From positions 352,001 to 416,000 of the forward strand of contig OY970067.1 in the NCBI GenBank assembly GCA_963705305.1: DNA of 64,000 nucleotides, given 5' to 3'. Source of the stretch: an uncultured Methylomirabilota bacterium (GTDB lineage: Bacteria > Methylomirabilota > Methylomirabilia > Methylomirabilales > 2-02-FULL-66-22). Below are positions 6,645-23,403 of the stretch, piece by piece. The notes under the pieces were generated by a model. The model made no database searches and was not told the DNA's origin. It was given only the letters and a program-made list of their open reading frames with translations. Position numbers and translations under genes: made by a program. Numbering within the stretch: the stretch's first letter is position 1; the number at the start of each line of letters is the position of its first letter.

Positions 6645-6803
6645 TTGATTTCTCCAGAATGTTGAGCCTCCTCCGTCGGTCGCCACGAGGAGGGGCAACG
6701 GATCGGAGGTTACGCCTGGCCGCCCTAGCCTGTCAAGCCCGTTGGCTCCTTGGCAGGGCGGCGGATGAGGTGGCCTGCCCCATTGATTGGTCCTCCCGCA
6801 AGG

Positions 6804-7068
6804 TTAGTGTCCCCTTCGGGGATGGTGGAAATCCCCCGCCTTCAGGCGGAGCACGCTGGGCGATAGGGGCGCCACAAGGTTTCGATCGGCGAGGTTCATG
6901 CGATCAGCGTAGTGGTGCCCCTGAGCCCGCCGCAGATCTTGTGCGCATGCGGAGTCGACTTCCAGTCGACCCAATCTTCCTATTGGAAGTGGCCAGGTCA
7001 TATACAGTTCAGAGAACGGTTCCATGAGGTCAACCCCTCGGCTTGCAGCCGAGGGTCGTTGAGTTCAA
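6804..7068 (+). mobile_element. Non-autonomous IS200/IS605-like element / structured RNA candidate, copy A
   Basis: TTAG then hairpins TCCCCTTCGGGGA and CCGCCTTCAGGCGG on the left; CCCTCGGCTTGCAGCCGAGGG-TCGTTGAGTTCAA on the right; internal blocks shared with 23170-23403. Confidence 0.65.
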
Positions 7069-7115
7069 ACCGGCTCCTAACGCCAGCGTCGGGCGCGGTT
7101 GGGTTCAGGCCATGG

Positions 7116-7136
7116 CGATTATTTAATTTCCCCCCG
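7116..7136. repeat. 21-bp direct repeat, copy 1
   Basis: CGATTATTTAATTTCCCCCCG, 19/21 identical to 9793-9813. Confidence 0.6.
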
Positions 7137-7147
7137 TGATTGTCATG

Positions 7148-7178
7148 GGGGACGTTGCATTATCTGTCGAATCTGCTT
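7148..7178. repeat. Isolated copy of the 4357-4566 MITE terminal sequence
   Basis: GGGGACGTTGCATTATCTGTCGAATCTGCTT. Confidence 0.55.
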
Positions 7179-7743
7179 AGCTACACCACCGCGGGAAATC
7201 GCCCTGCCACCGTGATTGGGGACGATGCCAAGTTCGTCACGTGCGAGGGAACTCGTCTTGCCCCTGCATCCATAACCACCTTGAGACGGATCGCTCACGC
7301 GGCACCCCGACCTCCGACGGACTGTCGGCACAGGGCCTGGCCCCGATGGATCGCAATACACCGGCGCACGCCGGCCGCCGCTCCAGAGAGAATCGCGCAG
7401 CAGGCCGACGGCCTGGCAGGCCGTGGTGACGCCATCCTCACGCAACATGCCGTACATGGCAATGGATTCCCCGATCACAGCTGGAAGGATCGGACTGGCG
7501 CGGGCCGAGGTCGCCTGGGTCCGCCTGGTCCTATCCCCGGTGTCCCTCTTTCCCCTTGACGCCCACCGTTGGTCCGCCGGATACTCCATGCAGCCCCAAG
7601 AAGGCCGCAAGCCGCGACCACGGGCAGCCCGAGGTCGAGCCGGCGGGTCCAGGTGCGGGCGCCGCGCCAGCGGGGAGGGCCCGTCGCATGGCGGTCCTCC
7701 AGCAACATATGTCTATCATCTCATTAACCGGAGGGAAGGTTTT

Positions 7744-8292
7744 ATGGAGCTTCACGAAGCCATCGAGAAGAGGCGAACCATCCGAATCTTCAAGGAGGGG
7801 GCGACCGAGGCCCAGCTCCGCACGCTCCTGGCCGCGGGCGCCAAGGCGCCGTCCACGCGCAACCGGCAATCCTGGGAGTTCATCCTGGTCCCGGAGCGGG
7901 CCCGGGTGGACCGAATCGCCGAGTTGAAGTACCAGTACAACCGGAAGTTCTCGCCCGGCCCGGGCGAGACCCAGCAGGAAGTCGAAGCGCGGGCGCGCGA
8001 CCAGCAGCAGTGGTTCCAGCATGCCAGCGTCGTCGCCGTCTGCACCCAGGGGGGTGATGTTGCCTCCGCGTGGCTCGCCGTCGAGAACATCTCCCTGACC
8101 GCCGTCGCCGAGGGGCTGGGCAGCGGCATCATCGGCTTTGGCGGGGAGGAGAAGAAGGCCGTGGAGGCCCTCCTGGGGCTGCCCGCCGGCTACGAACTGG
8201 TCTGTATCATGAAGTTCGGGGTGCCCGCAGGGCCAGTCACGAAACCGCCGATGCGACCCGAATTCAGTTGGCTGCACAAAAACACATTCTAA
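7744..8292 (+). CDS. Nitroreductase family protein
   Basis: MELHEAIEKRRTIRIF, APSTRNRQSWEFILV, ENISLTAVAEGLGS. Confidence 0.92.
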   Translation: MELHEAIEKRRTIRIFKEGATEAQLRTLLAAGAKAPSTRNRQSWEFILVPERARVDRIAELKYQYNRKFSPGPGETQQEVEARARDQQQWFQHASVVAVCTQGGDVASAWLAVENISLTAVAEGLGSGIIGFGGEEKKAVEALLGLPAGYELVCIMKFGVPAGPVTKPPMRPEFSWLHKNTF

Positions 8293-8335
8293 CGCAAGGT
8301 AAACGATGCCCTGAACAGGGCTCGCACGAGGTGCT

Positions 8336-8365
8336 GGCCAGGGGGTGCTTCCCCCTGGCCTTTTT
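8336..8365 (+). terminator. Rho-independent terminator
   Basis: GGCCAGGGGG-TGCTT-CCCCCTGGCC followed by TTTTT. Confidence 0.85.
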
Positions 8366-8722
8366 CTGTTTCCCCCGCGGTCAGGGGAGGCACGTCCAGA
8401 CTCATCGGACACGCGCACTTGAGACAGGAGGTCCGCTGAGGTCATGAATCCCAGGCGTTTGCAGGAGAGTATTCGGGGCTGGACGGGGTCGCGGCGGACG
8501 ACAACGCGACGCTGGCGATAGAAGTCAAGATGGATTGGCTCCTTGGCCTCAAGCAGCCATTGCACATTCAGGGTGCCGGGGGGGCGAACCTAAGGGTATT
8601 TTTGCGGTTCCCCCGGAGCTGCTTGTCCCCTTCCAGGGTCAATGGGCGGCCTGAGAATACTCGCCGCCCGGACCCCCGTCAAATGCCGGACCGGGCGCGG
8701 GACGGGGAGGAAGGGGACACCG

Positions 8723-9446
8723 ATGAACGTCCTGGGGTACATCCGGGTCAGCACGAACGAGCAGGCGGAGAACGGGGTGAGCCTGGCGGCCCAGCGGCAC
8801 CGGATTCGGGAGTACTGCCAGGCAAACGGCTACAAGTGCGTCGAGATCCTCGAAGACGACGGGTACAGCGGGAAGGATTCTCCGGCGCCCGGCGCTCCAA
8901 CGCCTCCTGGCAGAGCTGGAGGCTAAGGGGTGCCCATTGGGCGCCCTTGTCGTGGCCAAATTGGACCGGCTGACCCGGTCGGTCCGGGACCTCATCCGGC
9001 TGACCGAACTCCTCCGGAAGCATGGCGTAGCCTTGGTCTCCATCCAAGAGGCGGTGGACACGTCCACGGCGACGGGGCAGATGTTCTACACCCTCGTGAC
9101 CGTCATCTCCGAGTGGGAGCGGGGCGTCATCGGGGAACGGACCCGGGAGGCGCTGGCCCACAAGCGGCGGGACGGCAAGCGGGCGGGGGCGATCCCCTAC
9201 GGATTCAAATTGGCACGGGATCGCAAGACGCTGGTGGAGGTCCCCGAGGAGCAGCGGACTCTCGCGCTGATCCAGCGTAAGCGTGAGCGGCTCAATCTCA
9301 GCTTCTCCCGGATCGCGACGGACTTGAATGCCAGGGGCAACCTGGCGAAGCACGGCGGCCGCTGGCAGCCCGGGACTATTCGTAGCGTCCTCCGGACCCT
9401 CCACCGCCACGGGGGAATGCTCGGACCTGTGAGAGCGGCCGGGTGA
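8723..9446 (+). pseudogene. Short serine recombinase (resolvase catalytic domain plus partial recombinase domain), +1 frameshift near 8880
   Basis: GYIRVSTNEQ..DDGYSGKD / LRRPALQRLL..KLDRLTRS..SEWERGVIGERT..IPYGF..IATDLNARG..GGRW; removing one T in GATTCTCCGG joins the two frames (~240 aa). Confidence 0.88.
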
Positions 9447-9792
9447 ACCCGGAACAGGGAGGAACTGGGGCGGAGAGCTGGCGAGGGAGGCACAGGATCA
9501 GTCGGCGTGCCGGGGGGCTCATGAAGACCGCTGCTGTCCCGTCAAGGACTTAGAGAATTGATCCCTGCATTTTACCTGGCGAGATCCCCGCTTTCCGCCT
9601 GCTCCCTTCCCACCCGTTTTCGGCCCATCACAGGGCGTCCAGGGGGGGCAAAGCTCCCCTGGAAAGCGATCGCCCATCCTCGGGCTTCCTGGTGGGCTAG
9701 GCGGGGGGTTTCGAGGGCATCTCCGGGACCCTCCGGATAGCCCTGGATCCGCCCGGCTGGCGGCGGGGCTCACCACTGCGGTTACTCGGAGC

Positions 9793-9813
9793 CGATCATT
9801 TAATTCCCCCCCG
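9793..9813. repeat. 21-bp direct repeat, copy 2
   Basis: CGATCATTTAATTCCCCCCCG. Confidence 0.6.
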
Positions 9814-9921
9814 GCCCTACAGAGGGAGCAGCGGGGGCGAAATTCGGAGGGTATTGACTGGTGGCCTGATGAGGTGTCCCGTTCGAGGCCTGCACGGCTC
9901 CCCAAGCAGGGCGAAGCTCTA

Positions 9922-10116
9922 GCCGTTACACAAAGGTGTTGATAACGGTCGGCGTTTCGCTAGTAACGGCATGAATTGGTTGACCGAATCGGAACGCCTT
10001 GTCGGGGAAGAAATCTTCCTCGATGTCAGCTCAATCCGAAAAGGACGGAATGCGCTGTAACCACAGAGGAATCGCGCCTATTGACAAGCGAATCTTCAAC
10101 ACCTTTGTGTAGCGGG
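9922..10116. mobile_element. 195-bp TA-flanked MITE (IS630-like target duplication)
   Basis: TA|GCCGTTACACAAAGGTGTTGA ... TCAACACCTTTGTGTAGCGGG|TA; 16-bp perfect IR core. Confidence 0.75.
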
Positions 10117-10492
10117 TAGGCCCGGCCCCGAGACTGGGATAGGAGTACGCGCCCCAGAGATAAGCCCCCGCCCAGTACGGGGTGTAGCCATAGTAGCCAT
10201 GGTAGGCGGTCTCGTGCTGCCGCGAGACCGGCTTCTCCGTGTCGATCGGGGGACTCTCCGCCACCTGGGCCTTCGTCAGCGCGGCCATGAGTCGCTTCTG
10301 CGCCCAGTCGATCGCGCGGACGGCGATCGGCGAGAGGAGCACCTTCCGGCCCGACAGCCACCCCCCCGTCTCGACCACGACGTAGCGCACCGTGTAGCTC
10401 ACATCGTCGAAGTAGCCGTCGTGGACCGTGCCGATGTCCCCATCGGTGGCCCCGATCGTGAACCCGTGGAGCGCCTTCATGCTCCGGAGCAT
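10117..10492 (-). pseudogene. PRC-barrel domain protein, truncated at the MITE
   Basis: GFTIGATDGDIGTVHDGYFDD..VRYVVVETGGWLSGRKVLLSP..YYGYTPYW; frame runs into the MITE IR and the second barrel is absent. Confidence 0.8.
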
Positions 10493-10989
10493 CGCACCCT
10501 CCTGTGGGGCTTGTGGCTGCCCCCCGCCGCCGGCCCCGCCGGATGGACCCGGAGGGGAGGTGGTTGCGGCACGAACCCGCACCGCGTCAGTACTCGGGAC
10601 TGTAACGCTCGAACGTTGTGGACAGGATCTTCCGCGCACTGCACAGGACCGTATCAGGCGCGCTCGGATTCTTCCAGAAGATCTGGTAGGGTCGGATGCC
10701 GGACGCCGCCGAAGGGGAAAGGGGCAGGGCCAGGACAGCGACACGGGTGACGGGGGGCCACCGCATGGCTGTTCTTCGTACCCGCTGGCGTGTCTGCGGC
10801 CGCCGGTCCATCGAAGTCGTCGGCATCGAGGTCAGTCTCTGGCCGGGACGCGAGCAACCGATAGGGAAAGCGCTTGCGTGGCCGTCTGCCCACGCAAGCT
10901 CCAGACCCGCCGTGGCCTGCTGGAGGCACCGGCGCGACCAAGCCCGAGGCGGAGGCCGGGCTGCCCCCGTCTCGAACCGGGTCTCGCCT

Positions 10990-11178
10990 TTAGCTCGCCG
11001 CTGGCTCTGGATGCTGCCTGCTCTTCGCCTCGAGCTCCTTCCGCCCCTTCTCGGCATTCCGGTATTCACCGGTCATGGTCACAACGGCCGTTTGGAGTGA
11101 CCGCACCTTGAAGTACCAGACCGCCCCGCCTCCGGCAACGAGCCCAATGAGGATTCCCAGCCAGAAATTGATGTCCAT
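10990..11178 (-). CDS. Small membrane-anchored hypothetical protein (62 aa)
   Basis: AAGGAG RBS, N-terminal TM helix (FWLGILIGLVAGGGAVWYF), charged tail. Confidence 0.6.
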   Translation of the reverse strand: MDINFWLGILIGLVAGGGAVWYFKVRSLQTAVVTMTGEYRNAEKGRKELEAKSRQHPEPAAS

Positions 11179-11224
11179 AGCCTACTCCTTTCGTGCGCTC
11201 GGCCGTGGGTGCAAAGATCATGTT

Positions 11225-11407
11225 CCCTCCGTGCCACGCCCGTCTCAAACAGATATCGGTGCAATAACAGATCCACCCCCGTTCTTGGGTGGCCCACGGG
11301 ATCTCAGCGCTGGTGAATCGAATAGTTGAATTGAACCAGCGGCGAAGAACCAGGGGATGGACAGACTGAAAACCCACGACCCTTCGGAGAGGCTCCAAAA
11401 TATCGGA
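11225..11407 (-). promoter_or_regulatory. Enhancer/promoter module copy 1 (tandem palindromic sites, GGGTGGATCTGTTATTGCA box, TGGCAC)
   Basis: Aligns with 15850-15999 on the opposite strand with near-identical spacing. Confidence 0.55.
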
Positions 11408-11460
11408 CGGCCTGGCGCCCAGACCCGCTGGCGCACCCAGCCCGCGCCTTGCGCCTCCTG

Positions 11461-13467
11461 GTAGGGTCGAGGACTGGCGCGGCACCCCTTAGGCTCCCCT
11501 TGGCCGTGTCCGCCGTTTCCAGCTTCGTGCCCGTTTAGGTTGGCCGTGAGCCCGTCTCCAGTCCCCGCCGCATCAAACGGAGCGTGCGGATTTCCCGCAC
11601 TCCGCTTTCCTGCCCGTTTCACCCCAAGGGTTATGGGACCTATCGGATGGGGAGCGCTGTCAGCGGGGCGCCGCGCGGTACCGAATGCGATAATCGCCAT
11701 ACAGCCCGAGCGTCGCATAGAGCCACCGCCGACTCCACCTCGTCCACCCGAGGCCCGGACGATTCCGTGCCCGCATCAGGTGCCGCCGCACCTTCTGCTC
11801 CACCCAGTTCCGGACGTAGGAGAAGCACCGACTGGCGTGGCCCACGGCGAAATACTGGACCCAGCCGCGCAGCACGGGGTTGATCTCGGCGATCACCTTC
11901 CGTACGGGCTGAGACTGGAGGTGCCGAAAGATCTCCTTGAGCGTCCGCAGCAGCGCCGCGCGCTTCTTCAGCTGCGGCGTCCGCAGCGGCCACCAGACGC
12001 CCCGCTTGGAGCGGACGCGCCAGAGGGTGAAGCCCAGGAAGTCCACGGTCTCCCCCTTCACCAGGTCCACGACTCGACTCTTCTCTTCATTGACCTCGAC
12101 ATGGAGGAGCGCCAATTCCTCGCGGAGCCGTTTGGTGATCGCGTCGAGCAGCCAGGCATGGCGGGGATGGGCGTCCACCAGGACGACCAGATCATCGGCG
12201 AACCGCGCGTACTCCAGCGCCGTGTACTGGTGGAAACAGGTGACCGCCTTGGCGCGCTCCAGCATCCGGTCCACCTCGGTGAGGTAGAGGTTGCTGAGCA
12301 GCGGGGAGATCACCCCACCCTGAGGAACACCCATCTTCCCGGAAGCCTTCAGCATCTGCTTGAGCAGGGCCAGGATGTCCAGATCGTTGACGCGCCGGGC
12401 CACCTTCGCGAGCAGCACATCGTGCCGCACGCGATCGAAGTAGCTTCGGAGATCAAGATCGATGATCCTGGTCTTGCCTTGGCTGATCGCTTTGGCCACC
12501 CGGTCCACCGCTTGATGCGCCGACTTCAGCGGGCGGTACCCAAACGACCCGGGTTGGAAGTCAGCCTCGAAGATGGGCTCCAGGACGAGCTTGAGCGCGC
12601 CCTGGACCACGCGGCGCGGATGGCGGGGATCGAGAGGATTCGGACCTTGCGGCCGTTGTCCTTCGGGATCGCCTGCTTCCGGCACCGCAGGGGCCGAGTC
12701 CGTGCGCGAGACCAGTGCGTCCCGGAGCGACTGGAGGAACCCCTCGACGCCGCTCGCTTCGATGGCGGCAAAGGTCACCCGGTCAATGCCTGGGGCGCCA
12801 TTGTTCGCCTTCGCTGCTGCGTACGCTGCCCGGAGCGTCTCCAGCTTGCACACATGGACGTACAGGCCCCAGAACCGCCAGGACGGTTCGGCCTTCGCCT
12901 TGGCGTAAATCCTCCGCTGCAGGTCTTGCAGCCCGATAGACGCCATTGTCATTGCGTCTCTGCCTCCCGTGTAGGCGGAGGAACACGAACAGCAGGGTCC
13001 CTTCGCTCCGGCGGCATTACCCGCCTTCGTCGCTACTCCGGACCCATCCGCCACCGTCTCGTCGTCCGCCCCTTTCCCGAGGGACTCCCGGTTATAGGAC
13101 GTACCCAGCTTCCGCCGCTTTCGCGACGGGACGAGGACGGCTTCTCCAGTTGCTCGGCATGTCCTGTGTCACCGTGCTGTCCCTACCACCCCGCCGAAGT
13201 GGCATGCGGCGTCAGTCAGCTTGCCGCCTGTCATGCTGCCTTCGCCCCGGACCAAAGGGCTCGGCCTTCGGGGTCATTTTTTCGAGGCCACTGGTGGGTT
13301 CACTTGCGTTACGGCCCGGTGACTCGCTCACCATCCCGATGATGGCTTTGTCGGTTGGCTTCCTCCGCTTCGTTTCCTCCGCGGAGGCAACCCAAGCTAC
13401 GGGGGGTCTGACTGTTCCCCCGGTGGGACTGCCTCCCACTGAACATGCCAGCCTTCGCTGGACACGC
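11461..13467 (-). mobile_element. Group II intron (ribozyme plus RT/maturase ORF)
   Basis: Domain V AAGCGGAGTGCGGGAAATCCGCACGCTCCGTTTG (11574-11607); domain VI ends CGACCCTAC at 11461; 5' end GCGTGTCCAGCGAAGG near 13467. Confidence 0.9.
11660..12952 (-). CDS. ltrA: Group II intron reverse transcriptase/maturase without endonuclease domain; compensating frameshifts near 12610-12700
   Basis: GAPGID, LEPIFEADF..SFGYRP, GVPQGGVISPLLSNLYL, YARFADD, INPVLRGWVQYF. Confidence 0.9.
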   Translation of the reverse strand: MTMASIGLQDLQRRIYAKAKAEPSWRFWGLYVHVCKLETLRAAYAAAKANNGAPGIDRVTFAAIEASGVEGFLQSLRDALVSRTDSAPAVPEAGDPEGQRPQGPNPLDPRHPRRVVQGALKLVLEPIFEADFQPGSFGYRPLKSAHQAVDRVAKAISQGKTRIIDLDLRSYFDRVRHDVLLAKVARRVNDLDILALLKQMLKASGKMGVPQGGVISPLLSNLYLTEVDRMLERAKAVTCFHQYTALEYARFADDLVVLVDAHPRHAWLLDAITKRLREELALLHVEVNEEKSRVVDLVKGETVDFLGFTLWRVRSKRGVWWPLRTPQLKKRAALLRTLKEIFRHLQSQPVRKVIAEINPVLRGWVQYFAVGHASRCFSYVRNWVEQKVRRHLMRARNRPGLGWTRWSRRWLYATLGLYGDYRIRYRAAPR

Positions 13468-14268
13468 CGGCCCGCAAAAACTTCAGATGTTGCCCATGCC
13501 TTGAGTCGAATTCTACGCTTTGATCAGTACGGAACCATTTGATTGTAAAAGAATCTTCCAGCGTCGACCACTCTGAGATGCGACCCATTGCCAATTTTGG
13601 GTCCGTCCACCGGGACTAGTCGAAGACTTAGGATTGGGAATTTTGCTTAATTGGCAGTCCGCTCCCCCGGCTCCCTGAATGTGCAATGATTGTCTGGGCC
13701 CCCAAGAGGGCCTCCGGCTCCACGCCGGGCGTTACCTTCCCATCCTCGCCCACCATGGTGTTTTCGATCATCACTCGGATTGTCCCCCGCCCTCGGCCCG
13801 TGTCTCCACTGCACAACTTCTCGGTCTGGCTGAGCTCCGCACGCATTCAAAATCCGTCCTCACGGTGCCCCAATACTCTCCGCTGCGGAGCACTAGGAAG
13901 GGGCACCGCCTCGAATGGGCGCGACGCCCACCGCCCGTCGGTCCGGTTCCCTGACCTCAGGGAGCCAACCTGCTGTTCTGTATTCTTGCCGGCATTCTCG
14001 CTCGCCTTCCCGAGGGGGTGGGAGGGATCGGGGGGCGCCGCTGCCGCGGGGGGACCGGAGCGACCCGCAGGGAATGGCGCTTGCAAATGGCAGCCGAGGT
14101 TTTGTACTATCTGGGGGCGCGAAGGGGACGTGCGACGGCCTCGTGCAGGAGGCATCCCCACCTCGTGGTTCCTGGAATCGCGGACGTCTAGGGCGGTCGG
14201 GACGGGCCGTGTCTTGGCCCGGGGGTGGGTACCGGGGGCCGGACATCGGTGACGGGAGAGACGCCGCC

Positions 14269-15834
14269 ATGACCCGGGCGGAAGAGGGCCTGCGGGCGGA
14301 GTTGGAGGAGCGGCTGCGGTTCGAGGCGCTTCTCGCCGACCTCTCGGCCCGCTTCGTCCACGTGCCGGCCGAGCAGGTGGACCGGCTGATTGAGGAGGCC
14401 CAGCGGCGCATCGTCGAGGCGCTGGGGGTGGACCGCAGCACCCTCCTGCAGCGGGCGGAGGCGGAGAACGACCTGGTCATCACACACGCCTGGGCCGTGC
14501 CGGACTTCGCGGCCCAGCCCGGGCTCTTTGCGATCCGGGATTTCCCCTGGGTGCATCAGACGCTGCTGCGGGGCGGGACCGTGCGCTTCGCGACGCTGGC
14601 GGAGCTCCCCCCCGAGGCCACGCGTGACCAGGTCTCCTTCCGCAAGATCCACCAGAAGTCCAACCTGATCTTTCCGCTGGCCGCGAGCGGGCGGGTGTTC
14701 GGGGCGCTCTCCTTCGGCACGCTCCGGACCGAGCGCGAGTGGCCGGACGTCCTGGTGCAGCGCCTGCAGCTCCTGGCGGACATCTTTGCCAATGCCCTGG
14801 CGCGCCAGCGGAGCGAGCAGGCGCTCCGGCGCGCCCTGGACGATGCCACGCGCCTGAAACAGCAGCTCGAGGCCGAGAACGCCTATCTGCGCGAGGCGGC
14901 CCAGGCGCAACCCAGCGAGATCGTGGGGAACTCGCCGGCGCTGCAGCAGGTGCTGTCCCAGGCGGACCACGTCGCCCCCACCGAGACCGCCGTGCTGCTG
15001 CTGGGGGAGACCGGCACCGGCAAGGGACTGCTCGGGCAGCTCATCCATCGCCGGAGCCGGCGAAAGGACCGTGCGATGGTCACGGTCAACTGCGCGGCCC
15101 TCCCCCCGACCTTGATCGAGGCCGAGCTGTTCGGGCGGGAGAAGGGCGCCTATACGGGGGCCCTGACCCGCCAGGCCGGGCGGTTCGAGCTGGCGCACGG
15201 CGGGACGCTCTTCCTGGACGAGATCGCCGAGCTCCCGCTGGAGCTGCAGGTCAAGCTGCTGCGGGTCCTGGAGAACGGGCAGCTGGAGCGGATCGGCAGC
15301 ACCCGGACCCTCACGGTGGATGTCCGGGTGATCGCCGCGACCAACCGGGACCTCGCCAAGCGGGTCGCGGACGGCACCTTCCGCGAGGACCTCTACTACC
15401 GCCTGAATGTCTTCCCGATCGCCGTGCCGCCGCTTCGGGAGCGCCAGGAAGACATCCCACTGCTCGTCTGGACCTTCGCCAAGCAATTCGGCCAGGCGCT
15501 CGGCAAGCCCGTGGAGCGGATCCCCCAGGAGACGATGGCGGCGCTCCAGGGCTACCCCTGGCCCGGCAACATCCGGGAACTGCGGAACGTGATCGAGCGC
15601 GCAGTCATCCTCAGCGAGGGTTCGACTCTCCGGGTGCCGCTAGGGGCGACCGCCGGCCCGAGTGTGGCCGCGCCACCGACCCTCGCCGACGCCGAGCGCA
15701 CGCAGATCGTGGCCGCGCTGGAGCAGACCGGCTGGCACATCCGCGGCCCGGCCGGAGCCGCCAAGCTGCTCGGCCTCAAGCCCACCACCCTCGAGTCCCG
15801 CATCAAGAAGCTCGGCCTCGAACGCCCCCGCTGA
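14269..15834 (+). CDS. Sigma54-dependent activator (GAF + AAA+ + Fis-type HTH, FhlA/NifA-like)
   Basis: [59 protein letters not shown]. Confidence 0.95.
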
Positions 15835-15849
15835 GCGGCTGGCCCCGCC

Positions 15850-15999
15850 TCCAATGGTTCGGAGCCGCTCCGACATATCGGACGGTTCTCGCCGGTGCCT
15901 CCCCCGAGGTTCCACCGTCGCTTCCCATTCAACCCCGCGGTTCGATAGGGCGAAATCCGCCTCGCGCCACCTGCCGGGCCGGGTGGATCTGTTGTTGCA
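15850..15999 (+). promoter_or_regulatory. Enhancer/promoter module copy 2
   Basis: TCCAATGGTTCGGAGCCGCTCCGACATATCG then GGGTGGATCTGTTGTTGCA at 15981. Confidence 0.55.
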
Positions 16000-16067
16000 T
16001 GCTGCTACACGCAGGACGGGCAATTCCGTCCGAGTCGCAATCCGCGCGAACGGGGGCGAGAGTGACC

Positions 16068-16388
16068 ATGATTATTTCCACGCTGCGGATTCTCACAACG
16101 CCCCAGTCCCGGACCGAGGTCGTTAGGATCCTCGCCGCGCAACTGGGTCCGACGCGGGGGCAACCGGCCTGCCTTCGGTGCGATCTCTACCAAGATGTGG
16201 AGAATCGCGCCGCCATCACCCTGGTAGAGGAGTGGGAATCCGAGGCTGCTCTGCGCCTCCGCTTAGGCTCCGAGGGTTCCCGTGCCATCCTGGGAGCGAT
16301 CGAGCTGTCGCCAGAGCACCCCGTGCTGTACGTCGACACGGTCCTCAGCCGCGCGGGCCTAGAGGTCATCGAGTCGGCCCGAGGGTAG
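16068..16388 (+). CDS. Antibiotic-biosynthesis-monooxygenase (ABM)-like small protein
   Basis: PTRGQPACLRCDLYQDVEN..LVEEWESEAAL pattern, 106 aa. Confidence 0.7.
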   Translation: MIISTLRILTTPQSRTEVVRILAAQLGPTRGQPACLRCDLYQDVENRAAITLVEEWESEAALRLRLGSEGSRAILGAIELSPEHPVLYVDTVLSRAGLEVIESARG

Positions 16389-16537
16389 CGGCGCGGTGAG
16401 GACCCCGCCAACGTGGTGCGGACCGAGCGCACACCGCGCTCCAGGCCGACCACCCGGAAGACAGGGATGGCCCGGAGGGCGAGGAGCGTGGCACACGGGG
16501 CGCCTGAACGAACCAACATTGCAAGGAAGGAGGACAC

Positions 16538-16852
16538 ATGAAGACAGCGAGACCGATCGTGCAGTCGATGTTGATGCTGTTGGTGATGGTGGTAATCGCC
16601 GGTTGTGCGGCGACCCGAACGACCGAAAGCACGGGGCAGTACGTGGATGATTCCACCATCACGGCGAAGGTGAAGGCCGCGATTCTTGAGGATCCGGCCC
16701 TGAAGGTGTTTGACATCAGCGTGGAGACGTTCAAGGGGACCGTCCAGTTGAGCGGCTTCGTGAATTCGGCGGAGGTCCGGAGCCGGGCGGCCGTCGTGGC
16801 CGGCGGTGTCAGCGGCGTGCGGTCCGTCAAGAACGATCTGCTCGTCAAGTAG
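16538..16852 (+). CDS. BON-domain (OsmY-like) lipoprotein
   Basis: Lipobox IAGC; YVDDSTITAKVKA, VETFKGTVQLSGFV, GVRSVKNDL. Confidence 0.93.
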   Translation: MKTARPIVQSMLMLLVMVVIAGCAATRTTESTGQYVDDSTITAKVKAAILEDPALKVFDISVETFKGTVQLSGFVNSAEVRSRAAVVAGGVSGVRSVKNDLLVK

Positions 16853-17017
16853 GGGGCTCCCCCGGAGCGTGCACCTCCAGGCCCCCCGGCCCGTTCACGG
16901 AGAGCCGACCGCTCGCCGCGGCGCGAGCGCGGCGGAGCCGGGAGACGGGAACCCTGGCGGTGGGGGCTTCACACACGGTCGCACGGTGGCAGCCGGGCGA
17001 TCGCAGGAGGAACGGCG

Positions 17018-17560
17018 ATGTGGAAATGGCTAGGGCTCATGATGGTGGCCATGGTGGCGGCGATGCCCCTGGGCTGCTCCCAGCCCTCAGGATCGCACGT
17101 GGTGATCGAGGACAAGACCTACACGGTGACACCGGCCTCGGTGACGGTGAAGGCGGGGATCGTCACGGGCGAGATCACGGAGATGAAGGTCACGGAGCGG
17201 GTCGAGAAGGGCTCCGGCACCGTCGTCGCTCCGGCGAAGCTCACGGGGACGCTCAAGCTAACGAATAGCTCCAAGGATCAGACCGTCCGCCTTATTACCG
17301 GGAAGATCCAGTACATCGACGCGCAGGGGCAGCCCATCAAGGTCAGTGCGGCACAGACCGAACCGACCATCACGCTCGCCACGTACGGCGCCGAGACGCT
17401 CGATCCCGGGAAGGAGGCGACCCAGTCCCTCGAGGTGGACTTCCCCGCCGAGGCCCTGAAGGCGAAGACGCTGAAGGAGATCCGCCTCGAACTCGCGTAC
17501 ATCCCGGCCCCGTACAAGGTGGAGAGCGTTAATTTCACCGTGGCGATTGGCGGCCAGTAA
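17018..17560 (+). CDS. Hypothetical lipoprotein
   Basis: AGGAGG RBS, signal peptide ending PLGC, beta-rich mature part. Confidence 0.75.
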   Translation: MWKWLGLMMVAMVAAMPLGCSQPSGSHVVIEDKTYTVTPASVTVKAGIVTGEITEMKVTERVEKGSGTVVAPAKLTGTLKLTNSSKDQTVRLITGKIQYIDAQGQPIKVSAAQTEPTITLATYGAETLDPGKEATQSLEVDFPAEALKAKTLKEIRLELAYIPAPYKVESVNFTVAIGGQ

Positions 17561-17756
17561 GCCTCGAAGGCTCTGCTTCCGGGCTGGACCGCCCCGCTCC
17601 TGAACGGACTTGGCCCGGCCGCGGCTTTCCGGCCAGATGGAGTAGTGTTCGATCCCCCTCACCACGACGCGGGGGGGGTACGCTGATGGCGCGAACCGAC
17701 AGCAGGCGATTTGGCCCATCACAAGTCAGGGGATCGTCTGAGAAAGGGGGCCTCCC

Positions 17757-18332
17757 ATGCCGGACGAGAGCAAGAGCCTGGCGAAATCGGTAAAGGACAG
17801 TATCGTCTCCGCAGTGAAGGGCGTCGGTGAGATCACGGACGCCGTCGTCGACACGGTGAGCGGCAGCCTGGTCAACGCGGTCACGCGCACCGGAGAGATG
17901 GGCGCGGCGCTCACCGGGGCGATCTCGGCGGTGGTGCGCGGAGTGGTCCAGGGCGTGACCGAGATCGGCGCCGACATCGGCAGCGCGGCCAAGGGGGCAG
18001 TGATCGGCGTGCTGCGCGGCACCAAGGAGGTCGGCGGCGAGGCGCTCGACGCCGTGAGCGCAACCGCCGCCGCCCTGGTCAAGAGCACGGCCGAGGTCGG
18101 CGGCGACCTGGGCTCGGCGGCGAAGGGCGCCGTCGAGGGTGCGATCGCCGGCGCGAAAGCCGTCGGCTTGAGCGCGGAGGAGGCCGCCGCGGCCGCCGCG
18201 ACGGGGGCGCTCAAGGCTGCGGGCGAGATCGGCTCGGCGGCTGCGGCGCAGGTGCGCAACGCCGTGACGGGCACGATCGCCGGCGTGAAGGTGGTGCTGA
18301 AGGAGCCGTTCCAGAGCCACAAGGACAAGTAG
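17757..18332 (+). CDS. Ala/Gly/Val-rich protein made of seven tandem 22-aa repeats
   Basis: Exact 22-residue register with [EA]-[IMV]-G recurring. Confidence 0.8.
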   Translation: MPDESKSLAKSVKDSIVSAVKGVGEITDAVVDTVSGSLVNAVTRTGEMGAALTGAISAVVRGVVQGVTEIGADIGSAAKGAVIGVLRGTKEVGGEALDAVSATAAALVKSTAEVGGDLGSAAKGAVEGAIAGAKAVGLSAEEAAAAAATGALKAAGEIGSAAAAQVRNAVTGTIAGVKVVLKEPFQSHKDK

Positions 18333-18572
18333 CGGTCGGGCCCGGTCGGTTGATCTAGGGAGCCGCCGGCGTACGGGGGGCGGCTGGGGGCCGTCTACGG
18401 CGGTCCCCACCCATCCTCGGCACAGCCGGCCCGGGCTGGGCACTTCCCATCGGTGGGCGTCGCGGGGCCCGGACCGGAGGGGCGGCCCCTCCCGCGAGAC
18501 GGCGCGAGGGGCCGGGGGAAGACCGGCGCAGTCGGTGAAGGAGGAAGGGCCAGGACGCTGGAACTGTTTGCG

Positions 18573-18812
18573 ATGTGGGTGCTCGTCGGGCTGCTGGCCG
18601 GCTGGCTGGCCGGGTTCGTCATGAAGGGCGGCGGCTACGGGCTGATCGGCGACATCGTCCTCGGGCTCGTCGGCAGCCTCCTGGGAAGCTGGATCTTCCG
18701 GGCCCTGGGGGTTTCTCCCGGCGCGGGGCTCTTCATGGCGGTCGTCGTCGCGTTCATCGGGGCGGTCCTCGTGATCGGCGCCCAGCGTGAGTTCTGGTCC
18801 GTGCCCGCCTAG
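18573..18812 (+). CDS. GlsB/YeaQ/YmgE family stress-response membrane protein
   Basis: VGLLAGWLAGFVMKGGGYGLIGDIVLGLVGS..VAFIGAVL; start uncertain. Confidence 0.88.
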   Translation: MWVLVGLLAGWLAGFVMKGGGYGLIGDIVLGLVGSLLGSWIFRALGVSPGAGLFMAVVVAFIGAVLVIGAQREFWSVPA

Positions 18813-19094
18813 CGGCACGCACCGCACACCTCGGCGGGTCGGTTCACCGCGGAAAGCGGCGCGGCCATCGGCCTAGTGCTGCAGTGTGAGTGATGAGAGA
18901 ACGTGGGAAGACCTGTCAATGAATAGCAGGAGCGCTCGTGTGTGCATTGCCTCGAGGCCGTCCGGAGCCTCACGGCGTCTCCGCTCAGGCGGTGCTCGCA
19001 CCGTGGGAACCTCGAGGCGCCGACCCCATCGCAGTGCTCGGCTGCACGGGTGCGCCGATCATTCCGCATCCGTTGTCGAAAGGAGCGAAGCACA

Positions 19095-19385
19095 ATGAAG
19101 AAGATGAAGCCATTGCACGACCGGATCCTGGTCAAGCGTCTGGAGGAGAAAGAGACGAAGAAGGGCGGGATCATCATCCCGGATACCGCCAAGGAGAAGC
19201 CCCAGGAGGCCGAAGTCATCGCCGTGGGTCCCGGCAAGGTCACCGACGATGGAAAGCTCCAGCCCATGGCGGTGAAGGTGGGCGACAAGATCCTCTTCGG
19301 CAAGTACTCGGGGAGCGAAGTGAAGCTGAACGATGAGGAATACCTGATCATGCGGGAGGAGGATGTCCTCGGCATCCTGCAGTAA
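19095..19385 (+). CDS. groES: Co-chaperonin GroES
   Basis: [35 protein letters not shown]. Confidence 0.98.
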
Positions 19386-21095
<1,710 letters not shown>

Positions 21096-21131
21096 ACGGT
21101 CGCAGGAGGCTTTCCCCCTTGTGTGGGGCAT

Positions 21132-21163
21132 GGCATCCCCGGCGGCTACCCGCCGGGGATGCC
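21132..21163 (+). terminator. Strong stem-loop after groEL (no U-tract)
   Basis: GGCATCCCCGGCGG-CTAC-CCGCCGGGGATGCC, 14-bp perfect stem. Confidence 0.6.
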
Positions 21164-21262
21164 CGCCGGAGACGCGTATGCTCCGAACGTCTCCCATGGG
21201 GTAATAGCGGAGAGCGGCACGACGAATCACCTCCTGCGAGGATGCGAGCCTGGATTCTTCGC

Positions 21263-21374
21263 CCGCGCCGTGGAAAGGCGCTCTGTTCTTGCCGGTGCAA
21301 GTCCGGCCTGGGGCATTGTCGGTGCGCCCCAGTAGCTACCGAGGCGGCAAGGAGGGTAACCAAGTCGCCGAAGC
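21263..21374 (+). mobile_element. 5' fragment (domain I start) of a second group II intron
   Basis: (CC)GCGCCGTGGAAAGGCGC..GCCGGTGCAAGTCCGGC..TGGGGC..GCCCCAGTAGCT..GGTAAC..GAAGC parallels the motif order at the 5' end of the full intron. Confidence 0.6.
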
Positions 21375-21528
21375 AGCACGGCGGCGTTGCAGTTCCTCTG
21401 GAAGCCGCAGGCATCCTGTGGCAGCGATGAGCGGTGTGTGACTGGAGGATTGCGAATTGACAAGCAGGTGCAGAGATAACACGTCGCGGTCAGCGCATTC
21501 AGGTGCCTAATTCATGGAGGGAATCGAC

Positions 21529-22452
21529 ATGCGAAAAAGCAGCTCGTTTGCCGCATTGATCTTCATCGTAATTCTTGGCATTGGCGGTGGAGTAGCCTTT
21601 GCCCTGTATCGAGTCACGGCGAACCTGGCAAGCGCTTGGATTGGCACCCTAGCGTTTGTGGTCGCCCTCGTTGTGTCGCTCGCCATTAAGGTGGCGGATC
21701 AGTGGGAGCGGGCGGTGATCTTGCGGTTAGGCAAGTTCCGCGCCCTCAAGGGCCCGGGACTGTTTTTCATTCTCCCGGTCCTCGACGCGATCCCGTACTG
21801 GATTGACACCCGCGTGATCACCGCGTCGTTCAAGGCGGAAAAGACCCTGACCAAAGATACGGTGCCGGTGGATGTCGATGCCGTGCTCTTCTGGAAAGTG
21901 GTAGACCCCCAGAAGGCGGCCCTGGATGTCGCCGACTATCAAAGCGCCATCAATTGGGCCTCCCAAACGGCGCTGCGGGATGTCATCGGCAAGACCATGC
22001 TGTCGGACATGCTGGAAGGCAGGGAAAAGATTAGTCAGGAGCTGCAGAAGATCATCGATGTGCGCACCGAGCCCTGGGGCATTAATGTGATTTCGGTGGA
22101 AGTCAAGGATGTTCTGATTCCCTCGGCCCTGGAGGATGCGATGTCGATGCAGGCCCAGGCGGAACGAGAACGGCAGGCCCGGGTGATCCTGGGAGATTCG
22201 GAGCGCCAGGTGGCGGAGAAGTTTGGAGAAGCGGCCAAGACCTACGCCAACAATCCGATCGCGCTGCATTTGCGGGCGATGAACATGCTGTATGAGGGGT
22301 TGAAGGAGAACGCCACGATCGTCATTGTACCCAGCACGGCCGTGGAAACCATGCAACTCGGGAGTATTGCCGGGGTGACTGCGCTGACCATGGGATTGGG
22401 CCAGGAGCGCGTAAACAAAGAGAAGGAAAGCGAACTCAGAAAACAAGAATGA
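21529..22452 (+). CDS. SPFH/band-7 (stomatin/slipin) family protein
   Basis: QWERAVILRLG, LTKDTVPVDVDAVLFW, QAQAERERQARVI. Confidence 0.95.
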   Translation: MRKSSSFAALIFIVILGIGGGVAFALYRVTANLASAWIGTLAFVVALVVSLAIKVADQWERAVILRLGKFRALKGPGLFFILPVLDAIPYWIDTRVITASFKAEKTLTKDTVPVDVDAVLFWKVVDPQKAALDVADYQSAINWASQTALRDVIGKTMLSDMLEGREKISQELQKIIDVRTEPWGINVISVEVKDVLIPSALEDAMSMQAQAERERQARVILGDSERQVAEKFGEAAKTYANNPIALHLRAMNMLYEGLKENATIVIVPSTAVETMQLGSIAGVTALTMGLGQERVNKEKESELRKQE

Positions 22453-22691
22453 CGGCAATGTACGATGAGTGGTGTCGAGACTCGTAATCACATTGCCGCG
22501 TCCGACAACCAGCGGGGGCGGCCAACGGTTACGTCTATTGCCCGTTGGCGGCGGCACCACGCCCGACGACAGAGTAAACGGCGCGAGTGATACCGCGCTG
22601 CGACGGCATTGCGGTTCCTCTCGAAGCTGATCCCATTCTCTGGCAGCGATGATTCACCCTCGAATGGGAGTAGGAAAAAGGAAGACGACCT

Positions 22692-23108
22692 ATGCAAAAG
22701 CCAAAAAGACCGAAAAGAATGCGACAGCCAACAGGGCGGACACGGTCCGTGTCAGGCGAGGCCGCAGAAAAGGCGGACGCGACCACAGACCTCACTACGT
22801 CCGAACGCCCGCTGCATGATTATGGGGCAGAGGTATCGGAGCGGACTGATGTGCGAGTTGGTGTGCCATTGCCTCTGGGAACCTATGCACGCGGCGAAGG
22901 CGTGAACTGTGCCTTATTTAGCCGGCACGCCAGCCGCGTTCGGCTGGAGTTGTTTGATCATCCCGAAGATGCGGCGGCCGGCAGGGTGACTGATCTGGAT
23001 CCCGCGCGCAACCGCACGGGTGACGTGTGGCACGTCTGGATTGAGGGGATTCGACCCGGTCAACTCCGTGCCTATTGCGTGGACGGCCACGCCAACAGCA
23101 GGCAGTAG
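22692..23108 (+). pseudogene. glgX: N-terminal fragment of glycogen debranching enzyme
   Basis: GVPLPLG..GVNCALFSRHASRVRLELFD..NRTGDVWHVWIEGIRPGQL..YCVDG then stop; no catalytic domain. Confidence 0.8.
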
Positions 23109-23169
23109 ATCAGAGGGAGGCGAGACCGGCTCAAAGGGGATTGCGACTTCAACTAACCGCTGCTCGAAC

Positions 23170-23403
23170 CTGAATTACTACTGACTTCAAGCCGCTAGGC
23201 TCGGAATGCACCTCTGGCTGAGTGGTGTACAACGGTACCACGTATCAACGTCGTCCCTCGGTCAACTGGAAGTCGACCTGGGTTGGGTCGGGGACACACC
23301 GGGACTCAGGGGCGCCATTACCTGAGTGCGAGGGCTGAAGACTGCGTGAGCATGGGGCCCTCTATCGCCCAATGTGACTCGCCTAAAGGTGAGGGGTTTC
23401 CAC
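23170..23403 (-). mobile_element. Non-autonomous IS200/IS605-like element / structured RNA candidate, copy B (outer left hairpin missing)
   Basis: Blocks GGTCAACTGGAAGTCGAC, CTCAGGGGCGCCATTAC, CTATCGCCCAATGTG, CGCCTAAAGGTGAGGGGTTTCCAC match the reverse complement of copy A in order and spacing. Confidence 0.6.

Follow-up and report, generated by a model that had tools for sequence, protein, structure and literature searches.

Probable non-autonomous derivatives of a compact, tnpA-only IS200-type insertion sequence in an uncultured Methylomirabilota genome

Introduction

A stretch of 64,000 nucleotides from an uncultured Methylomirabilota bacterium (GenBank assembly GCA_963705305.1, contig OY970067.1, positions 352,001 to 416,000, hereafter the window) contains two short, structured sequences devoid of any open reading frame (ORF), copy A on the plus strand and copy B on the minus strand. 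Comparative analysis supports, with a probability of about nine in ten, that these sequences are non-autonomous and derive from a compact insertion sequence of IS200 type (IS200/IS605 family), whose only gene is tnpA, and that they are similar in kind to the palindrome-associated transposable elements (PATEs) reportedly described by Dyall-Smith in 2011 (PMC3119063). While such gene-less selfish DNA is already known and ordinary, it is here unusually well documented. An earlier note on this DNA had suggested non-autonomous IS200/IS605 elements with subterminal hairpins, a view which is now supported by homology to tnpA-bearing elements, by empty insertion sites and by covariation between guide and cleavage-site bases. 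The genome (G000) is a single 5.65-Mb contig (C1), of which the window is a part.

Copies of the element in the genome

Pairwise alignment established that copies A (+) and B (-) are homologous, sharing an ordered series of conserved blocks between which the linkers are unrelated (mean column identity of 74% over 342 columns), as the earlier note had described for two diverged copies. BLAST of copy A against the whole genome revealed a third copy, copy C, at G000:C1:4348685-4348946 (+) (E 1.2e-27, 71% identity), and a genome-wide search with copy B recovered the B-C match independently of A (E 2e-6). A covariance model built from copies A, B and C then identified, in the same genome, a fourth copy at 1702707-1702979 (+) (58.5 bits) and a decayed tnpA-bearing remnant at 1668505-1668636 (-). 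The genome thus contains four copies in total, of which A and C look structurally complete. The same model gave matches in 16 of 61 genomes including its own, i.e. in 10 of 20 other genomes of the genus and in 5 of 15 from another family of the order, so that the search suggested by the earlier note yielded further homologues both in the genome and in its relatives. No Rfam family was found on the copies, whether with gathering thresholds or with E values relaxed to 10, nor on 14 typical members of the family at E up to 0.1; matches to DUF3800-XI (14 bits) and mir-9449 (17 bits) were dismissed as being far under the thresholds.

Homology to tnpA-bearing elements

Several of the weaker matches have only the first ~50 nt in common with copy A and continue into an IS200-type tnpA ORF, which is followed by a GTCGAT-loop-ATCGAC hairpin and a second, right-end hairpin, after which similarity stops. 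In one of these relatives (L038), the ORF is intact (Pfam Y1_Tnp, 140 bits) and matches TnpA proteins of solved structure (ISDra2, ISHp608 and two from Sulfolobus) with E values of 1e-22 to 1e-26, the HUH motif and the C-terminal tyrosine being aligned. Bases 1-69 of copy A are 79-89% identical to the left ends of tnpA-bearing elements and bases 226-262 are 76-84% identical to their right ends, while the right-end palindrome (bases 229-249) is 86% identical to left ends. A comparable likeness between the two ends is found within the full-length elements, whose left region (hairpin 1, GATGGT..GAA, palindrome) resembles the right region (GTCGAT hairpin, GATGGT..GAA, palindrome). Among 41 elements with a clean right end, 16 bear tnpA (512-543 nt) and 25 are ORF-less (161-344 nt). 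In all 16 full-length elements, the right end directly follows tnpA, the GTCGAT-loop-ATCGAC hairpin lies within the tnpA 3' end, 6-8 nt before the right guide, and tnpB is absent.

The family extends well beyond the order. In a scan of one genome per species, the 31-nt left-end motif was found at 120 places at least, those listed including Acidobacteriota, Desulfobacterota, Latescibacterota, Acetothermia, Gemmatimonadota, several proteobacterial groups, Leptospirillum, Opitutaceae and others. Of the first 80 of these loci, 28 have a TnpA match downstream, 19 are cut by a contig end and 33 are TnpA-less, a class defined on at least 466 nt downstream of the left end; most of these 33 loci share the modular plan of copy A. 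The copies in one genome of the same genus (G019) are surrounded by unrelated sequence, which fits a mobile element, and copies are not syntenic between species.

A sub-family of ORF-less elements (L028, L031, L032, L037, L046 and L047, from same-genus genomes and family f7) combines the usual left and right ends with a different interior, made of C-run/G-run hairpins of the CCCCCTTCCCCC ... GGGGGAAGG type.

Insertion site and anatomy of copy A

Copy A splits a host repeat belonging to a ~110-nt family that is unrelated to the element. Empty sites, which the earlier note had proposed to look for, were found as eight unoccupied copies of this repeat, six of them in genomes G020 and G010 and two in the genome itself, at G000:C1:942054-942163 (-) and 506740-506870 (+). 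They read TTAG followed directly by (T/C)TCAA, i.e. the right flank of copy A, and the occupied site reads TTAG, copy A and the same flank, which corresponds to insertion 3' of TTAG without target duplication and without terminal inverted repeats; the exact junction of copy A is ambiguous by 2 nt (AG). These sites confirm TTAG as the left target, as originally proposed, and place the TTCAA that had been taken for the right end of copy A in the flanking host repeat, the true end being TGAG. The homology of the originally delimited segment (6804-7068) holds and its bounds are revised to 6808-7063. On this basis, the following features have been assigned in the window:

6770..6807 (+), left half of the unrelated host repeat split by copy A, from repeat copies elsewhere
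6804..6807 (+), TTAG target tetranucleotide, the left cleavage site (CL), outside the element in flanking DNA, from empty sites
6808..7063 (+), copy A, a 256-nt ORF-less putative IS200 derivative, with bounds from empty sites
6810..6822 (+), left-end hairpin 1 with a 5-bp stem and a 3-nt loop, read directly from the sequence
6829..6832 (+), left guide (GL), AAAT in copy A and AAAC in most relatives, from covariation of the fourth base
6834..6851 (+), left subterminal imperfect palindrome (IPL), a predicted TnpA-binding hairpin, from compensatory changes among copies
6857..6928 (+), long internal stem-loop (helix 5: 21 pairs, 6 with a compensatory change)
6954..6970 (+), GTCGAC-loop-GTCGAC hairpin (right-end hairpin 1), with a counterpart in tnpA-bearing elements
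7031..7034 (+), right guide (GR), CAAC, from covariation with the right cleavage site
7035..7055 (+), right subterminal palindrome (IPR) with an 8-bp stem and a 5-nt loop (helix 10: 9 pairs, 4 with a compensatory change)
7060..7063 (+), right cleavage site (CR), TGAG, the last bases of copy A, from empty sites and covariation with the right guide
7064..7136 (+), right half of the host repeat split by copy A, from repeat copies elsewhere

Copy A has retained cis-acting parent DNA from the left end (hairpin 1, the 4-nt guide and the imperfect palindrome) and from the right end (the GTCGAC-type hairpin, the 4-nt guide, the palindrome and a T-N-A-N cleavage site), while almost all of tnpA has been lost from the ORF-less copies. 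Hairpin 1 is conserved at the start of both tnpA-bearing and ORF-less relatives and is the counterpart of the right-end GTCGAC-type hairpin. Likewise, the subterminal imperfect palindromes are present at both ends, alike, and kept with compensatory changes. The four blocks which had first drawn attention to the two copies map to the left guide and IPL, to the halves of the internal stem, to right-end hairpin 1 and to the right palindrome.

Covariation of guides and cleavage sites

In the related element IS608, each cleavage tetranucleotide is recognized by pairing with four bases that stand 5' of the corresponding palindrome foot; within the cleavage site, T-4 and A-2 are in contact, and A-2 has no further base contact (He 2011, PMC3201880). 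At the left end of the present family, 72 distinct contexts combine TTAG directly 5' of the element with guide AAAC, and five combine TTAT with AAAA (the register of L049 having been re-set by eye). The covarying pair is formed by the fourth guide base and the fourth target base, C going with TTAG and A with TTAT; the exceptions are one guide A beside CTAG and a few degenerate flanks. In copy A, where the guide is AAAT, the T opposite the target G makes a G.T wobble.

For the right end, a hairpin scan gave 49 candidates, of which 41 were kept for their geometry (stem starting with C, loop of 4-6, linker of 4-5, cleavage site followed by T) and 8 of other geometry were dropped. The first guide base (GR1) and the second cleavage-site base (CR2) form a Watson-Crick pair in 34 of these 41 right ends, as G-C in 20, A-T in 12 and C-G in 2. 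The mean in shuffles is 16.9 and none of 100000 shuffles reached 34, counts in which copies from the same genome are non-independent. For the fourth bases of guide and site (GR4-CR4), 37 of the 41 pairs are Watson-Crick, three are mismatched and one is a wobble. Since the scan required T at position 1 and A at position 3 of the cleavage site, these two positions provide no evidence. In their covariation, the guides and cleavage sites follow the rule known from IS608.

Proposed mechanism and mobility in this genome

If the elements work as their homologue IS608 does, a Y1 HUH transposase provided in trans would bind both palindromes on the top strand and would locate the cleavage sites through their pairing with the guide tetranucleotides. 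A single-stranded circle would then be excised and re-inserted 3' of TTAG without duplication. Mobilization of the ORF-less copies in trans is inferred from this analogy.

Several observations weigh against the transposon interpretation or limit its reach in this genome. No intact cognate TnpA was found in the genome, where tblastn gives three broken matches of 29-36% identity, and the two best genomic Y1_Tnp matches are interrupted by in-frame stops and differ in their ends. Identity among the copies is no more than 70-77%, which gives no sign of recent movement here. The GR1-CR2 rule is broken in 7 of the 41 right ends (L031, L161, L107, L110, L131, L167 and L133). In an alignment of eight A-type copies, standard pairs fill 83% of the paired cells, and compensatory change is seen at 23 of 69 pairs (none of 500 shuffles being as high and slid alignments giving 30-44%), figures which derive from a model-fitted alignment that inflates them and from related, non-independent copies. 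The long internal stem has, to our knowledge, no role in TnpA transposition and is left unexplained by the mechanism. Finally, IS608-type elements are reported to show an orientation bias, their top strand lying on the lagging-strand template; taken at face value, the GC skew would orient three of the four copies the opposite way, for a sample of four and an uncertain origin. The cumulative GC skew has its minimum at 1.82 Mb and its maximum at 4.14 Mb, so that the replichores are unequal, and dnaA, at 3.48 Mb, is near neither extreme; the position of the origin is uncertain because these markers disagree.

Given the lack of an intact cognate transposase, the divergence of the copies (70-77% identity) and the truncation of copy B, the copies in this genome are now probably immobile relics.

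Fourteen weaker Y1_Tnp matches (25-40 bits) in frames of 217-567 aa, for instance at G000:C1:3087976-3088299 and 5452626-5452949, belong to a different multi-copy HUH-type family, not to IS200 TnpA; one of these examples has an HVHLL motif.

The internal stem-loop and alternative readings

The internal stem-loop of copy A is a lengthened version of the tnpA start-codon hairpin: in full-length elements, the sequence homologous to the 5' half of the stem is a small hairpin with the tnpA start codon in its loop. The predicted fold of copy A is more stable than those of its shuffles on either strand and reaches -121.3 kcal/mol on the plus strand (z -5.0 versus shuffles) and -108.3 kcal/mol on the minus strand (z -3.5), the latter being weaker. 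One reading of these data is that the left end and the start-codon hairpin, transcribed from a weak tnpA promoter, have been co-opted as a trans-acting RNA of ~250 nt. This is compatible with a transposon origin and could be true in addition to it, although on present data it appears unlikely. A precedent is reported from Salmonella, where the 5' untranslated region (UTR) of IS200 tnpA is processed into a regulatory RNA (PMC5435999, PMC12594629). In the present family, the start-codon hairpin region is kept in many ORF-less relatives of different phyla despite the loss of the ORF, the sense strand of copy A folds better than the antisense strand, and wobble pairs favour the tnpA-sense strand in the better-kept copies (11 G.T versus 3 A.C in copy A, 5 versus 1 in copy C). 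However, the active DNA strand of IS200/IS605 elements is the tnpA-sense strand, so neither wobble nor covariation can separate RNA from single-stranded DNA; as DNA strand and tnpA transcript coincide, the sequence by itself cannot distinguish an RNA role from a constraint on single-stranded DNA. In addition, a scan of the sense strand of A and B found no sigma-70-like promoter or canonical terminator, the right-end hairpin having no T run, and the copies are non-syntenic between species, B being truncated and decayed. Among public RNA runs, the best contain 0.07-0.12 of the query words, and the only regions that their contigs reach are the coding part of lemA and 6804-6852, with foreign sequence flanking either side. 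These contigs hence come from lemA genes of other organisms and from left ends of other elements, and are uninformative on the transcription of copy A.

A related proposal, which we regard as doubtful, is that the ORF-less form may be a self-standing, cross-phylum lineage that keeps and lengthens the start-codon hairpin, either as a third cis-acting site for transposition or as the core of a small RNA.

The earlier note had favoured another kind of RNA, namely orphan guide scaffolds (TnpB reRNA or IscB omega-RNA) working in trans for a nuclease encoded elsewhere. PATEs are reported often to encode omega-RNAs used in trans (Meers 2023, PMC10055086; PMC7290912), which made the idea a reasonable one, and the genome does encode an IscB (RRXRR, 203 bits, plus HNH), outside the window, in which, as stated originally, there is no tnpA, tnpB or iscB. 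Yet the 16 full-length relatives with a detectable right end have tnpA only, and the search for relatives carrying tnpB or iscB found none among them. A profile search of the genome gave no match to OrfB_IS605 (PF01385) and a sole match to PF07282 (TNB) of 21 bits, under the cut-off. Both IscB loci have their own HEARO RNA (121 and 88 bits), where the covariance model of the element scores 7 bits at most with filters off; conversely, HEARO (RF02033), to which comparison had been suggested, has no match on the copies at E up to 10. Furthermore, every conserved block is accounted for by homology to the left end, the right end or the tnpA start region. Because nuclease genes are missing from the parent lineage and tnpB from the genome, and because the IscB loci have their own unrelated HEARO, the guide-RNA reading is unsupported and must be considered extremely improbable. 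The earlier note had also offered a cis-regulatory alternative, in which the copies would be leader RNAs of the membrane-protein genes lemA and dedA; such leaders would be read on the strand opposite to tnpA. The left ends of A and B do face the starts of lemA (LemA, 197 bits) and of a VTT/DedA-type gene (49 bits), and a sigma-70-like promoter match (10/12) on the minus strand, at 7146-7118, points toward lemA through copy A (one found versus 0.2 expected in shuffles). This arrangement does not generalize: copy C lies within the last six codons of a glycosyltransferase gene, the fourth copy stands beside an aldolase-family gene, homologues elsewhere occupy unrelated contexts, many with tnpA, and are not confined to 5' UTRs, and relatives carry the dedA upstream region without the element. 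A leader-RNA function is thus very improbable, and an origin from a tnpA-only insertion sequence remains the preferred explanation.

As to the two neighbouring IscB-type loci themselves (L063 and L064, at G000:C1:3262115-3264722 (-)), both have a HEARO RNA in front of them (88 and 121 bits). One encodes 447 aa with RRXRR and HNH and the other has a partial RRXRR in a 179-aa frame, with RRXRR scores of 203 and 81 bits, respectively.

Copies B and C, the fourth copy and neighbouring sequences

Copy B is assigned as follows:

23170..23403 (-), copy B, a 5'-truncated, decayed copy of 234 nt (covariance model, 218 bits)

It is devoid of the first ~17 nt, including hairpin 1. Its truncation point is placed at 23403 because the homology of relatives to the dedA upstream region starts exactly there, the sequence beyond differing among relatives. 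The right-end palindrome of copy B is decayed and the strand bias of its wobble pairs is gone (7 G.T versus 8 A.C on the top strand). No clean empty site was found for this copy, as relatives share the dedA side only and their upstream sequences differ.

Copy C is inserted within the last six codons of a family-4 glycosyltransferase gene, in an operon, 19 nt before a DUF362 gene (region G000:C1:4348177-4349267, L002:993-2083). When it is removed in silico, the glycosyltransferase ORF ends in a TGA overlapping the ATG of the DUF362 gene (ATGA overlap). With the element in place, the last six codons are replaced by 55 element-derived codons, the inferred length of the protein changing from 448 aa to 496 aa. 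The fourth copy is flanked by an aldolase-family gene on one side and an unassigned ORF on the other. For the flanks of copy C and of the fourth copy, no DNA-level match was found in the 20 same-genus genomes.

The lemA-nitroreductase spacer, in which copy A resides, is dense with repeats. A short repeat at 6664-6780, located between lemA and copy A, has many ~80-85% copies in genomes G020, G006, G014 and G019, and two to three in the genome itself. To the right of copy A, repeated DNA spans 7142-7419; its part 7212-7419 recurs with 88% identity at G000:C1:926818-927025, and several copies of ~77-94% exist for 7142-7228.

The window also contains group II intron sequences. A full-length-looking intron lies at 11533-13441 (-), with Rfam matches to D1-D4 at 13304-13441 (124 bits) and to domain V/VI at 11533-11609 (40.6 bits), and an ORF at 11660-13054 with reverse-transcriptase and group II maturase domains. 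A further D1-D4 match of 54 bits at 21289-21419 (+) is probably a fragment, no domain V/VI having been found downstream at E up to 10. Copy B was considered as the 3' end of this fragment; this was rejected, as no domain V/VI match lies downstream and B is homologous to IS200 derivatives.

Comparison with known systems

The elements can be compared with several systems associated with Y1 HUH enzymes. PATEs are ORF-less, ends-only derivatives of IS200/IS605 elements (PMC7290912, PMC10055086). Like them, the present copies have no ORF, keep both ends with their hairpins, measure a few hundred nt and are presumed to be mobilized by TnpA in trans. Unlike them, they derive from a tnpA-only parent of IS200 type, keep the tnpA start-codon hairpin and occur in many phyla, whereas the described PATEs are mostly derived from IS605/IS1341 and often keep the tnpB 3' end with an omega-RNA.

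With IS608 and ISDra2, members of the IS200/IS605 family that transpose by single-strand "peel and paste", they share a target located 5' of the left end, the lack of duplication, subterminal imperfect palindromes, and a 4-nt guide 5' of each palindrome which pairs with positions 2 and 4 of a T-N-A-N site; moreover, the TnpA of their relatives matches the solved TnpA structures. They differ in their target (TTAG/TTAT, in contrast to TTAC/TTGAT), in the presence of an extra hairpin at each end, in the absence of tnpB and in a parent of only 512-543 nt. The spacing differs as well from that of IS608, with 25 nt instead of 19 between CL and the IPL foot, and 8 nt instead of 10 between the CR end and the IPR foot.

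Salmonella IS200, from which a 5'tnpA RNA and the antisense RNA art200 have been described, is similar in being tnpA-only, with a structured left end/5'UTR and a translation-start hairpin (PMC5435999, PMC4513863, PMC12594629). The copies in the window differ in having lost tnpA. REPINs and REP sequences with their RAYT (TnpA-REP) are likewise short and non-autonomous, contain hairpins and are linked to a Y1 HUH enzyme (PMC3116915, PMC8266576). REPs are 20-40 nt long, have a GTAG/CGTC-type tag and reach a high copy number beside a single domesticated gene. In contrast, the present elements measure 160-340 nt, have distinct left and right ends and are of low copy number (four here).

Significance

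Recognition of these sequences as probable transposon derivatives avoids a wrong annotation, since the repeats could be mistaken for an RNA gene or an orphan guide RNA, yet sites acting in transposon single-stranded DNA explain the covariation. The local effects are worth annotating as well: copy C alters the C-terminus of a glycosyltransferase and parts its gene from the downstream neighbour, and copy A splits a repeat upstream of lemA. The family also constitutes a natural data set of co-changing guide and cleavage/target tetranucleotides, in which the right end offers three pair types and the left end two; the guide/target pairing principle has reportedly been used to re-programme IS608 targeting (PMC5934647). 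If the ORF-less form were in addition a lineage of its own, which we consider doubtful, these gene-less copies would have a function of their own, through the hairpin acting as a third cis site or through a structured small RNA.

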